In this document: positions 5,173 through 16,881 of the stretch, in pieces
How the letters are laid out: every line of letters starts with the position of its first letter
Numbering within the stretch: the first letter of the stretch is position 1
Source of the DNA: Candidatus Bathyarchaeota archaeon
GTDB lineage: Archaea > Thermoproteota > Bathyarchaeia > Bathyarchaeales > Bathycorpusculaceae
DNA length: 64,000 bases
Direction: 5' to 3'
NCBI GenBank assembly: GCA_963780185.1
Contig: CAWABA010000007.1
Coordinates: forward strand, 1-64,000
Notes under the pieces: model-generated
What the model was told of the DNA's origin: nothing
What the model saw: the letters and a program-made list of their open reading frames with translations, nothing else
Databases searched by the model: none
Translations under genes and position numbers: made by a program

Positions 5173-5429
5173 TTAGAGTGCACTACGAAACTCTGTAAGC
5201 GCACGTTGTAACCTCATTCCGTCGTCCCATGTTAGCGCGTCGCCCTCATAGAAAATTGCTGTTAAACCTTTTAGAATAGTCGGCAAAACATCCTGAAATT
5301 TCTTATCAATTACTAGAATTACTCTTTTGTTGTAATTTAGGAAGCTACCGCCTACTTCAATAAGAACATTTTCGTTTATTCCATACCCTTCCCCTTGCTT
5401 TTTTTCTTCGTCCGCACTAATATTTATTA
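5173..5429 (-). pseudogene. Displaced C-terminal part of the TIR-domain gene (no start codon of its own)
   Basis: Translates INISADEEKKQGEGYGINENVLIEVGGSFLNYNKRVILVIDKKFQDVLPTILKGLTAIFYEGDALTWDDGMRLQRALTEFRSAL*; NVLIEVG is the Cap12/Pycsar-type TIR motif; joins in frame to ...CNCAIINI of 15931..16881. Confidence 0.9.
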
Positions 5430-5443
5430 CCTAAGTATTATCT
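5418..5443. repeat. Left att of the nested element: 12-bp core plus inner arm CCTAAGTATTATCT
   Basis: Core identical to 16011-16022; arm is a 12/14 inverted match to 15997-16010. Confidence 0.88.
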
Positions 5444-5611
5444 GGGTAATAGTTAAAGCCAAATTCACCTTTCAAACTGACATAATGACCCTTCTCGAAT
5501 CGAGAATATTTACGTTTTGATTAAAGATTAAAAAAACTTTCATCTTTCTCGGTGAAGATATCGTCCCACATTTGAGCTTAATTATTTCCTATTTACTCCC
5601 TCTGGTATTCT

Positions 5612-5791
5612 TTAGGTGATAGATTTTTTTGTGATTGATGGTGTGGTGTCTGTTGGTGGTGCTAATGAGCAGTTGTGTTTTTCAGGTTGACGATGCTTAT
5701 CACAAAAAATATGCGCACAAAAGGGACATATGTATAGCGTTAAAAATAGTGGGTACTCTTTTGCTTTTCCACAAACTTGACAACTATCCAT
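5612..5791 (-). CDS. AN1-type zinc-finger small protein (59 aa; not in the ORF track)
   Basis: MDSCQVCGKAKEYPLFLTLYICPFCAHIFCDKHRQPEKHNC shows the CxxC..CxxC..FCxxHRxPExHxC pattern. Confidence 0.75.
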   Translation of the reverse strand: MDSCQVCGKAKEYPLFLTLYICPFCAHIFCDKHRQPEKHNCSLAPPTDTTPSITKKSIT

Positions 5792-5854
5792 GTCTTCTAT
5801 CTCCTTAGCTGTATAGTTAGAGTCATAGCGATATAACGTTTGGCAGTGCGAGGG

Positions 5855-6205
5855 CTAAAATTTAAAGCCCCTTTTGTACTCGTGAAAATCCTCATCTTCC
5901 TTTGTGTAAAGCTCGCCCATCGGAAGGGGATCATTCGATTTCTCACCAGAAGAAGTAGGGGATTTGGAGGAGTCTTGATTGGTTGTCTTACGCTTATCCT
6001 TTTCTGACTCCTCAAGCTCCGCAAAGACCTCGGGATATTGCTTTTTCAACTTTGCCCTTGCGCAAATTCTTGTCGATTGATTGTCGCTGAGTGCTTGTTC
6101 AACAAGTGACTTGACTTTCCAATCATTCCAGATATCTTTAGCTTTGTCCTTTGCCTTCGCACCAAGCAATCTTAGGATTTTTTCCGCTTCATCCTCAATG
6201 GTCAT
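5855..6205 (-). CDS. Hypothetical protein
   Basis: 116-aa ATG ORF with charged, helical composition. Confidence 0.6.
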   Translation of the reverse strand: MTIEDEAEKILRLLGAKAKDKAKDIWNDWKVKSLVEQALSDNQSTRICARAKLKKQYPEVFAELEESEKDKRKTTNQDSSKSPTSSGEKSNDPLPMGELYTKEDEDFHEYKRGFKF

Positions 6206-14043: not shown

Positions 14044-14226
14044 ATTTTTTCTTCCCCTAAGTCATCCTTTATTCCACAAAATCTTCGTATTGACAATCTT
14101 TCGGTTTCTTTCCATCTTTGCAGCCAGTCCAAGCCCTGTCGGTATTTTCAGTGATCAATATTCCGTCGTTGTAGTAGCTGAATTGACCCATCTTTGGACA
14201 AGTCACGCAAATTCTGGCAATTCTTT

Positions 14227-14646
14227 TCATTCCTTGCGCACCTTCCACACTTCGATAGGTTCTTCATCTGGAATTTTGATGTATATTTTGCCATCTTCAT
14301 GCTCAGCAGGAATACCGTAATAGCTTCCGACCTGTGCAATCAAGCCATGCTGTACCAACCAGTGATTATTTTGCGAAAGAGAACAGTCAACGGGCATCAT
14401 GCCTTTTTTTAGCATTTCCACTTTGATGTCGCTGAAACGTAATCCAACACCTTTATGTTCCTCAAGAATAGCCAAAATGTTTTCTGCGACTGGTCTTCGT
14501 TTCTTTCTTTTTTCAGGCATTTTATCTTTTCCTCCTTTTTCATTTATTATATTATTTATGATTTTTCCTTTTAAATCTTCAGTATGACACCATAAAATCT
14601 TGTATAAAATCTTCAGTAAAACACAAAAAAGGTTCAGAAAATTCAA
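14227..14646 (-). CDS. Winged-helix DNA-binding protein (likely start MPEKRK, ~14520)
   Basis: ILAILEEHKGVGLRFSDI...LVQHGLI pattern; AGGAGG Shine-Dalgarno before the internal ATG. Confidence 0.55.
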   Translation of the reverse strand: MNFLNLFCVLLKILYKILWCHTEDLKGKIINNIINEKGGKDKMPEKRKKRRPVAENILAILEEHKGVGLRFSDIKVEMLKKGMMPVDCSLSQNNHWLVQHGLIAQVGSYYGIPAEHEDGKIYIKIPDEEPIEVWKVRKE

Positions 14647-14738
14647 AAAAATTAGGATTTTTCAGCTTGATTTTTATCCATTTCGCGTTGGCGTTGGGTG
14701 CGCATACTACATATGAAAAATGGAAAATCTAAAAAAAA

Positions 14739-15950
14739 TTAAGTGGGAGTTTGATTTTTGTCCTCTTCTTTTTGTTGCTCCCATTCCCATCGATTCTTGT
14801 CCTGCATCCACTTTGCAAATTCTTCAAAAGACATCTCAGTCATTTGCTTGAATATTTCTTCGTGCAATTTGACCCTTTGTTCAAGTGACTCTATTTTGGC
14901 TTTAGACGCCTTGACATCCGACTCCAAAACATCCGAAAAGATGCTTTTGCCTTTTATCTTTTCGTCAATTTCTTCTCGGGATGAAAACTCAATCTTCAAA
15001 AACTCCTCAGCCGCCATGTACAATTTTCTCAACTCCTCTGTGGGCATTTGCAGGTAAGCATTTGATTGTACCCCGATGTCGTGACCCATCCAGAACTCGC
15101 GGATTTTTTCATCCATCTTATTCACCAAACGAGTGTTGAAGGCGGCTCTAAGTGAATGTGGGCGAGCGGAATTATAACCACCGTTCTGCTCAATGAATTT
15201 TAAACCTACAGCTATTTCGCTAAAAGTTTGCTGGATGATTGTTGGATTAAGTCTTGCATCCCCTCGATCTCTCTCCTTAATGAATAATGGACTGTTACCT
15301 TTCAGGTCTTGTCTGGTTGCCAAGTACAACTTTAGGTAATGAACCGCATCCCTTCCAAAAAACGTCTTGAATTTAACATCGGTTTTCTGACGCACCAACT
15401 TCAAACAAATAGGTAAGATTCCTGATGTGAGTTCACTCTGCACATCTCCATAATTGAGATTACAGATTTCTTGCACGGCTAACCCTGATTGGAACATGCA
15501 CAAAATTATCGCTTTATCACGATAGCTTGATGTAGCATTAACAAATTCTTTAATCTGCTCAATTGTCCACTCATGCTTGCCATTCTCTTTTTTCTCATTC
15601 GGAGCTGGCACGTCAATGAAACTCGTTGATAGCACAATATGTTTCCACTTCAGGAAATTTTGTATTGCCGCAATGTATAATCTAATAGTGTTGGCGGACA
15701 ATCCTTTTTGCTCAAGACCTTTGATAAATTCTGCTACTTCCAATTCCGCGATGCTTTCTTGATTACGCAAATCCTTTTTGAACTCATTAAAAATTCTATC
15801 CAAAAAGTCACTGAAACCTTTGTCCTCGCCGTACTTTGCTTTGTAGAAGATCAAGAAACTTCGAAAACCCGACGCATAAGAACCTGCTGTATTTTTGTCT
15901 TTCAAATTCAAATATTTTTGAATCTCTTCTTCAAACTCTACTTTTTTCAT
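14739..15950 (-). CDS. Tyrosine integrase of the nested element (atypical first catalytic motif)
   Basis: SAM-like N-domain; RDKAIILCMFQSGLAVQE, RQKT, PHSLR, MGH...AY; adjacent to the att repeat. Confidence 0.88.
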   Translation of the reverse strand: MKKVEFEEEIQKYLNLKDKNTAGSYASGFRSFLIFYKAKYGEDKGFSDFLDRIFNEFKKDLRNQESIAELEVAEFIKGLEQKGLSANTIRLYIAAIQNFLKWKHIVLSTSFIDVPAPNEKKENGKHEWTIEQIKEFVNATSSYRDKAIILCMFQSGLAVQEICNLNYGDVQSELTSGILPICLKLVRQKTDVKFKTFFGRDAVHYLKLYLATRQDLKGNSPLFIKERDRGDARLNPTIIQQTFSEIAVGLKFIEQNGGYNSARPHSLRAAFNTRLVNKMDEKIREFWMGHDIGVQSNAYLQMPTEELRKLYMAAEEFLKIEFSSREEIDEKIKGKSIFSDVLESDVKASKAKIESLEQRVKLHEEIFKQMTEMSFEEFAKWMQDKNRWEWEQQKEEDKNQTPT

Positions 15951-16881
15951 GCTTGATCCCTATTAGTTTAGACGGAAAATGCATTAATAAGGATATAGGT
16001 AATACTTGGGTAATATTTATTATTGCACAATTGCATTTTTTCATTAAACCAAATACTTTATCTGATAATGGCATTGACAACGTTTCTCTTTCTTCAGCTA
16101 TTTCAAATTGAAATTGCCCATAGGCGAGCACTTGTTTTATTTGGTCTAAAATCTTCTTGTTTTTGCTGTGTGATATGAAAACCCATGGAAGTTTCGGTGA
16201 ACACGGCGGCGAAGGTATTTGTATTTCCATTTCCGCCTCCTTCTCGTTTTCTGGGTTGTCAAAATCTTCTCCTTCTTTCTGTTTTACTGCTGTTTTTACG
16301 AGCCCGCCCAACTTATCCAATCTTAGGTAAACTTTGCCTTGAAAATTCTCTGTTGCACCAAGTTCGGTTATGTTCTGCATGAGGACTTCGTAGCAACTTT
16401 CAGCACTCTCTTTATCCAAATTGAAATTTCTAATAAGCATGTTTTTGAACACCGTTGAGTCAGGAATTATTTTGCTGTTAATCAAATTGAGCGCTTTCTG
16501 AAATATTTCTGGTGTTTCAAGCGCTTTCCGTTTAAGAGTGTTAACATCCTCATCGGGTGTGGGGGCTGCTATCGATTTTCCCAGCGCACTTAGTGAAATT
16601 GTTTTCGTAAAATCCTTGGTACTAATACCTTCGTTCGTAAGTCCATATCGAATAGCTGATGTGATGATATCTCGAAAGGTACCGCTTGTGGGTGTGCTTC
16701 CAAGTTTTGATGCTATATCGAATAAAGAGAAAGGTTCACCCGCATTTTCTTCCCAAATTATTTGGGGAACCCTCAAAGCTTCTGTAAGGGAATTTCGTGG
16801 AAATTTTACGATTTTTCCTTTGGTATCATCCGAGGCTTTTGGCTTTTCAACGACGTTTTCCTTTTCGCTTTTTAAACTCAA
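15931..16881 (-). pseudogene. N-terminal 290 aa of an interrupted TIR-domain protein, plus 26 element-derived residues
   Basis: WVFISHSKN...KVFGLMKKCNCAIINI is the first half of a Cap12/Pycsar-like TIR domain; similarity ends exactly at the att core. Confidence 0.88.
15997..16022. repeat. Right att of the nested element: inner arm AGGTAATACTTGGG plus 12-bp core
   Basis: Core TAATATTTATTA at 16011-16022 is identical to 5418-5429. Confidence 0.88.

Follow-up and report, generated by a model that had tools for sequence, protein, structure and literature searches.

Mobile elements that interrupt a gene and restore it on leaving are known from bacteria. Examples are the skin element in sigK, the nifD, fdxN and hupL elements of Anabaena and the comK prophage of Listeria; each is fixed in a single gene in different strains and leaves it in response to a cue from development or infection. 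We describe here an archaeal locus that can be set beside them, in a genome whose small-subunit ribosomal RNA has the archaeal Rfam model as its best fit. The window, that is the whole stretch of DNA analysed, comprises 64,000 nt of a Candidatus Bathyarchaeota archaeon (assembly GCA_963780185.1, contig CAWABA010000007.1, positions 1 to 64,000), and all positions below refer to it unless a locus is named. In this window a gene for a TIR-domain protein is split by an integrative element of 10.6 kb. We consider it probable that this is a recent nested insertion which inactivated the gene, is reversible in principle and does not form a regulatory unit with it.

The locus resembles the bacterial cases in that an integrase-bearing element lies within a gene whose frame would be rebuilt by precise excision. 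It is unlike them in that the association is seen once, the same element occurs elsewhere and excision is only predicted, from the sequence. Compared with the excision-controlled class as a whole, it has the rebuildable frame (in silico) and lacks the stable association across strains or species. Neither an archaeal case nor a defence-gene case of an excision-restored gene was found in the open-access literature text searched.

The archaeal elements most similar in layout are the cryptic integrated elements of Thaumarchaeota (Krupovic et al. 2019, PMC6563490). They are described as having attachment (att) repeats of 8-26 bp and a tyrosine integrase at one end; 14 of the 68 elements lie in the 3'-distal part of protein-coding genes, an element nested in another at a tRNA gene is also described, and the legend of figure 2 gives an example in which the original stop codon of the gene is compared with the stop borne by the element. 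Short attachment sites in several archaeal groups are summarised in PMC8371274. The element in the window shares with the Thaumarchaeota elements a terminal tyrosine integrase, a short att repeat (12 bp here), nesting and the lack of recognisable virion genes. It differs from the 3'-distal cases in that 81 residues, among them half of the catalytic domain, are displaced and replaced by unrelated sequence, and in that the target is a defence-type gene. The island around the TIR gene is similar to the Islander-type tRNA islands (PMC4383910) in its displaced copies of the tRNA-Thr 3' end and in being missing from a close relative; unlike these, it has no integrase of its own left, and the nested element, to which the sole intact integrase belongs, is not integrated at the tRNA.

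A TIR gene split by an integrative element

The N-terminal part of the TIR gene (16011..16881, minus strand) encodes a helical N-terminal domain and the first half of the TIR domain. Its open reading frame (ORF) runs into the element as far as 15931 (15931..16881, minus strand) and comprises 290 residues of TIR-like sequence, ending ...KKCNCAIINI, followed by 26 residues without relatives. The C-terminal part (5173..5417, minus strand) was recognised by frame reading, a PADLOC match and alignment, and holds an invariant N-V-x-x-E motif. Read from 5427, this displaced piece is an 84-aa frame, INISADEEKKQ...FRSAL and a stop (INISADEEKKQGEGYGINENVLIEVGG...FRSAL plus stop), with a TAG directly upstream and no start codon. 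A preliminary description of the locus had placed this frame at 5429-5173; the peptide is as given there when read from 5427, but a start at 5429 yields many stops, a slip of 2 nt that leaves the description sound. Both parts of the gene abut the 12-mer TAATATTTATTA, a near-palindrome (TAATA-TT-TATTA) which forms the att core. It occurs in the window in two copies only, as a left (5418..5429, plus strand) and a right (16011..16022, plus strand) direct repeat, and in 0 of 100 composition-preserving shuffles.

Deletion of 5418-16010 in silico gave 1116 nt, corresponding to 371 codons and a stop with 0 internal stops. When the rejoined 371-aa protein was aligned by MAFFT with 21 intact homologues (P0003-P0023, 364-392 aa), it was collinear with them, the junction was crossed without gap or shift, and the junction motif was near-identical in all 21. 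In a comparison with 46 diverse intact homologues, the rejoined protein retained all 25 invariant columns and 52 of the 54 near-invariant ones, the exceptions being an F->Y and an S->T replacement.

These data bear out the structural part of the preliminary description. It had proposed that a TIR gene was split by an integrase-bearing element with 12-bp direct repeats, which agrees with the PF10137 assignment, the repeats and an intact integrase. The 371-aa stop-free frame that it expected on excision is rebuilt in silico and is apparently functional, and collinearity of the joined protein with intact homologues, which it had set as a check, holds for the 21 aligned here. It had also located the Glu of an NVxxExG motif in the displaced half; the Glu of this motif (NVLIE) lies there and is invariant in 46 of 46 homologues.

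The crossover falls about 78% along the TIR gene, at the codons of the conserved strand ...AIINI.... The last 81 residues, and with them the invariant Glu and two of five predicted strands, are cut off and 26 unrelated residues stand in their place, while the C-terminal piece is detached from the promoter and start of the gene. Given the loss of these 81 residues and the gain of 26 unrelated ones, the gene is almost certainly inactive, and its truncated product of 316 residues would have lost TIR enzyme activity. The missing Glu is presumably the catalytic residue, as in other TIR NADases.

A search of the protein collection with the first 291 residues returned 112 relatives, the great majority of them 340-392 residues long and with PF10137; the best was 77% identical (372 residues). 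The N-terminal half matched PF10137 over profile positions 2-58 of 119 with 18.3 bits, under the cut-off of 24.7 because only half a domain is present, and the C-terminal half matched the PADLOC TIR effector model over positions 232-296 of 306. The intact homologue P0003 (77-82% identical) matched PF10137 over positions 2-117 with 39.8 bits. The full-domain membership rests on this homologue, on which the Pfam run was made and which is collinear with the joined frame.

An AlphaFold2 model of P0003, built with 46 sequences (mean predicted local distance difference test score 84.6), contained a helical N-terminal domain at about residues 30-190, a disordered linker and a strand-helix domain at 234-371. 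The crossover falls in the third strand of this model (286-291), and the invariant N-V-x-x-E starts the helix that follows, in the displaced part. Among PDB structures, the best Foldseek matches of the model were the TIR-STING entries 9lmq and 7un8 (E 1e-4 to 4e-4), and further matches were flavodoxin-like, SARM1, RPS4 and MyD88 TIR entries. Searching the PDB by sequence, with P0003 or the 46-sequence profile as query, yielded no useful match (none at all, or a proteasome activator at E 0.3). On the basis of the model, the PF10137 domain is predicted to have a TIR (flavodoxin-like) fold, nearest to the TIR-STING structures. The 190-residue helical N-terminal domain gave a sub-threshold match to DUF7226 only.

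The window's protein has a PF10137 match and the invariant Glu in common with the CAP12/Pycsar TIR effectors. The cyclic-oligonucleotide-based antiphage signalling systems (CBASS) and the pyrimidine cyclase systems for antiphage resistance (Pycsar) have a cyclase or a cGAS/DncV-like nucleotidyltransferase (CD-NTase) as partner, whereas here neither a cyclase nor a CD-NTase gene is a conserved neighbour. No neighbouring gene was common to the 13 closest homologous loci, and neither the helicase nor the HicB-like ORF of the window was found beside TIR homologues (0 of 78 loci). An assignment to CBASS or Pycsar, or to a TIR-helicase system, was rejected for want of an adjacent cyclase or CD-NTase and of a conserved partner. 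With no neighbour shared by the 13 closest loci, the protein looks like a single-gene sensor-plus-TIR protein and not like a part of CBASS or Pycsar. A second PF10137-type TIR domain, uninterrupted, was noted in the same genome (G000 C11:192023-192439), in a 502-aa open frame with a different N-terminal part.

The element and its other sites

The body of the element (5430..16010) measures 10,581 bp between the repeats. It encodes an intact tyrosine integrase of 403 aa (14739..15950, minus strand), which starts 60 bp inside the right repeat. The integrase matched PF00589 with 46.7 bits (cut-off 27.1), SAM-like N-terminal domain models and phrog_1 (E 9.5e-20), and its relatives match it across residues 1-400; its catalytic residues were assigned by eye only. 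Next to the core, the outermost 11 bases at the two ends of the element form an inverted repeat (10 of 11), whereas the host-side arms are not inverted. A near-palindromic core between inverted element arms is the layout expected of a tyrosine-recombinase attachment site.

We looked for the same element in metagenomes with a 2-kb probe across the right junction, for which 20 sequencing runs were listed, none of them recorded as RNA and the best containing about half of the sampled words. The four best runs, three from one soil study (X1-X3) and one from a peat study (X4), were mapped on 3500-20500. In all four, contigs match the element from exactly 5418, the first base of the left repeat, to exactly 16021/16022, and then run into unlike sequence. 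One X2 contig is identical to the window over 13815-16021 (2,207 nt, 0 differences) and has another 2,205 letters without a counterpart there. The stretch 16541-19375, which holds the rest of the TIR N-terminal half and the helicase, had zero cover in 4 of 4 runs. The continuations of the contigs beyond the repeats differ from the opposite arms of the element; being unlike its other end, they are flanks of another integration site and not a circle junction. The element is inserted elsewhere, at a non-TIR site, in other communities, and is near-identical there in the integrase region. Its identity over 2,207 nt with a contig from another sample argues for a recent move; the element is a separate unit that is still mobile and has other targets. 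In viral contigs, a scan with the 24-nt right arm plus core returned nothing, and an integrase search gave one weak relative only (34% over 65 residues).

Among 401 genomes of the class, the integrase has its best relatives at 66% and 57% identity, and a scan of metagenomes added four more at 55-63% identity. Upstream of the integrase gene, all six relatives (55-66%) have a similar AT-rich core and, on the element side, a conserved arm, and the DNA beyond the core differs. One flank is the 3' end of a gene for a 404-residue multi-pass membrane protein, like the major facilitator superfamily by eye; another is the end of a surface-protein-like ORF; in a third relative, a tRNA-Thr gene has its 5' end about 130 nt from the core; and a further flank holds no listed ORF of at least 70 aa, with two Pfam-negative ORFs upstream and a radical-SAM gene about 1.2 kb off. 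Since only one end is seen for each relative, the exact crossover points are deduced from one side. A tblastn search with the TIR protein found a TIR gene beside 0 of 35 integrase-relative loci, apart from the window's own. The preliminary description had asked whether integrase relatives also sit in TIR genes at the same codon; none of these loci does, the relatives having the AT-rich core in common and adjoining unrelated DNA. It had itself named relatives at unrelated AT-rich sites, together with a lack of excised-form reads, as signs of chance insertion; for the choice of target this is largely what was found, the element lying at a non-TIR site elsewhere. Beside the integrase that is 66% identical, a 485-aa ORF (L002:1696-3153, genome G340) without a Pfam match appeared PIWI/Argonaute-like by eye.

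Recurrence was also sought from the side of the TIR gene. A TIR match is present in 20 of the 401 class genomes, and the gene is split only in the window's own. None of the 112 homologous proteins ends at this codon. A few truncated ones stop elsewhere: of six that were aligned, three diverge into unrelated sequence, at residues 135, 259 and 297 of the rejoined protein. None of 78 genomic TIR loci is interrupted at this site. A relative of the integrase is missing from the flanks (up to 5 kb on each side) of 77 of them; in the exception, L071, the TIR gene is intact. The empty site of the window's own locus was not found among the data searched; intact homologues of the target gene exist. The closest relatives of both the TIR protein and the integrase come from Bathyarchaeota-labelled bins and from soil or peat metagenome bins. 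A search of the window's own genome for the AmoA family gave no match, as did its controls, and so says nothing on lineage. Three more exact copies of the 12-mer are present in the genome, all unoccupied (G000 C4:75853, C10:7224 and C10:96370). At C4 and C10:7224 the 12-mer is flanked by similar words (GTATTAAG..) in inverted orientation that faintly recall the element arms; these copies might be scars or sites of a related element.

As to gene content, no capsid, packaging, virion, conjugation or clear replication genes were recognised among the element ORFs with Pfam and PHROGs, which gave no function for most of them. The labels provirus and plasmid were rejected because no capsid, packaging, conjugation or clear replication gene was recognised; we class the insert with the cryptic integrative elements of Krupovic et al. 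2019. An AN1-type zinc finger ORF (5612..5791, minus strand; PF01428, 37 bits) lies near the left end. A stretch of very low G+C content (7698..9220) is bounded by direct repeats of about 86 nt (7698-7783 and 9136-9220, 84-98% identical) and holds an ORF with a NOV_C domain (8262-8690, minus strand) and a winged-helix regulator-like ORF (8755-9063, plus strand). In a metagenome contig, 6925-8675 is swapped for 2,984 other letters (joint 6925->8675), which marks this as an exchangeable cargo region. Two ORFs are kept in related elements: 9671..10483 (plus strand) is 35% identical to a 290-aa ORF beside the integrase of L003, and a 139-aa ORF adjoining the integrase (14227..14646, minus strand) is common to the related elements L045 and L046 (40% over 78 aa). 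ORF 13744-14019 showed a Walker-type motif by eye.

Insertion, switch or targeting

The reading that we prefer is a recent nested insertion. The element has recombined through its 12-bp AT-rich near-palindromic core into the TIR coding sequence. This site was probably used for no other reason than the chance presence of the short core; element and gene would not be parts of one regulatory unit. The insertion is probably young, since a recent event would leave both halves undamaged, and integrase-mediated excision would restore the gene exactly. Several points weigh against this reading. An undamaged integrase between two undamaged TIR halves is also expected of a maintained reversible switch. 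The crossover lies within one of the best-conserved stretches of the TIR protein, and two homologous loci (L050 and L118) carry the 12-mer site with one mismatch; with such near-cognate DNA in close homologues, a preference for the PF10137 gene family is possible. TIR fragments in a Promethearchaeota-labelled bin (L116:5001-5279) and a Methanomassiliicoccales-labelled bin (L126:5001-5198) begin about 16 and about 5 codons, respectively, upstream of the cut site. The comparison of sites covers only six close integrase relatives, with both element ends seen for none, and the metagenome contigs show presence, never absence, in runs that do not include the source sample of the genome. A preference for the gene family, or a reversible toggle, has a low probability, and a recent insertion explains the same facts equally. 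The toggle would operate at the level of the population, with armed and disarmed cells, as mobile-element-driven phase variation of an abortive-infection effector; integration and excision would have to be frequent enough for one lineage to contain both kinds of cell. It agrees with the pristine halves, with the intact integrase and with the activity of the element at other sites, but we think it unlikely. If it were true, the element would gain a host unable to kill itself on the element's entry.

The preliminary description had put forward a switch in which a toxic effector is off until the element excises. In a dedicated switch of this kind, a costly or toxic effector would be held off and regulated excision would restore the gene, on infection or in some cells. 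Such a switch is compatible with an excision product that has every invariant residue, with an intact integrase adjoining the site and with the placement of the invariant Glu in the displaced half, and the insertion is polymorphic among relatives, giving on and off states at least between lineages. It is, however, improbable in the light of the wider comparison and was not borne out. The same element lies at a non-TIR site in four runs from two studies, so that no association is conserved, and the searches from both sides found no TIR gene beside any of the 35 integrase-relative loci and no break at the codon in any of the 112 proteins or 78 genomic loci. The element looks autonomous and variable, with exchangeable cargo, rather than like a domesticated intervening element, and the TIR gene itself is accessory, on an island missing in the nearest relative. 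No excised form, whether a joint of 5417 to 16011 or of the element end to end, is listed in the four mapped runs, which contain the element without the TIR gene, do not include the source sample and are therefore uninformative on the source population.

Anti-defence targeting would mean that the element family evolved to enter the conserved TIR motif and so disarms host immunity on entry. The core does coincide with a highly conserved coding motif, an exact core (L116) or a core with one mismatch (L050, L118) lies at the same place in other loci, and the TIR fragments of L116 and L126 start near it. Against this, of the 16 loci in which the motif could be made out only one has the exact core, the flanks of L116 and L126 (up to 5 kb on each side) contain no relative of this integrase, and the element and its relatives use non-TIR sites; moreover, with three other identical cores in the genome, the 12-mer is not unique to the TIR gene. 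We therefore rate targeting as quite improbable. The suggestion in the preliminary description that the element disables a defence gene stands as an effect, but specific targeting or intent is unsupported. A false join of the element to two gene pieces during assembly is very improbable. The assembly has 13 contigs and an estimated contamination of 3%, and the element has other contexts in metagenomes; both junctions, however, lie within one contig, the two parts of the gene meet the same 12-mer with orientation and register in agreement and can be rejoined with no base lost or gained, and an assembler would not be misled like this by a repeat as short as 12 bp.

The tRNA-Thr island and the meaning of the locus

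The TIR gene belongs, together with a HicB-like ORF and a pair of helicase-like genes, to a strain-specific island at a tRNA-Thr gene, and this island is preceded by the short remnant of an earlier one. The tRNA-Thr(GGT) gene (4434..4510, plus strand), the integration target of the outer island or islands, is 96% identical in the closest genome of the same genus (G420). Its 3' half (4457-4510) is repeated twice downstream. A degenerate copy (5046-5099, 81% identical) ends the short remnant island (4511..5099), which contains a HicB-like ORF (4740-4964, minus strand; PF15919, 28.3 bits). The second copy (19795-19848; 74% identical, with the last ~25 nt identical) ends the outer island (5100..19848), which is absent from G420: the distance from tRNA-Thr to the conserved flank (window 20377 onward) is about 720 bp there vs 15.9 kb in the window. 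The G+C content is 0.32-0.41 across 5000-20000, compared with 0.466 genome-wide. As the TIR gene lies on this low-GC tRNA-Thr island, the insertion of the element is nested, and its site is a mobile-DNA hotspot.

Beside the TIR gene, the outer island holds a 95-aa ORF (16963..17250, minus strand) without a Pfam match of its own, which shares 73% DNA identity over 100 nt with the HicB-like ORF of the remnant island. Two helicase-like ORFs of 496 and 392 aa with an 8-nt overlap follow (17149..19810, plus strand; PADLOC candidate PDC-S28). They cover PDC-S28 positions 16-468 and 679-816 of ~840, and the pair is either a natural two-gene form or a frameshifted helicase. On the other side of the tRNA-Thr gene lies tRNA-Leu(TAG) (3942..4029, minus strand), 100% identical over 91 nt in G420. 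Contigs of three soil runs join 4030 to 4379 and omit the 348 nt between the two tRNA genes (4031-4378), which indicates that this spacer varies among relatives. Positions 1-3939 contain only short ORFs in shifting frames, with a strong excess of A over T (AT skew up to 0.35) and no counterpart in G420. At 3092-3885, integrase-like motifs were seen by eye in three frames, as if an integrase had decayed next to the tRNA gene; no piece of this stretch had a Pfam match, and tblastn with the ORFs of all fetched loci found nothing.

On present evidence, the locus is an ordinary case of gene disruption, in which an accessory gene of an archaeon has been interrupted by an integrative element. It provides a base-exact example of such an element inside an immunity gene that is itself nested in a tRNA-linked island, and adds to the view of defence islands and mobile elements turning each other over. 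It also delineates a small family of archaeal integrases, present in soil, peat and sediment metagenomes, whose core is AT-rich, palindromic and 12 bp long. Should excision prove frequent or dependent on a cue, the TIR gene would be the first archaeal excision-restored gene in the open-access text searched. The TIR protein, with its helical N-terminal domain and PF10137 TIR domain, represents a widespread single-gene protein of archaea and bacteria that has no cyclase partner and is a candidate stand-alone defence gene.

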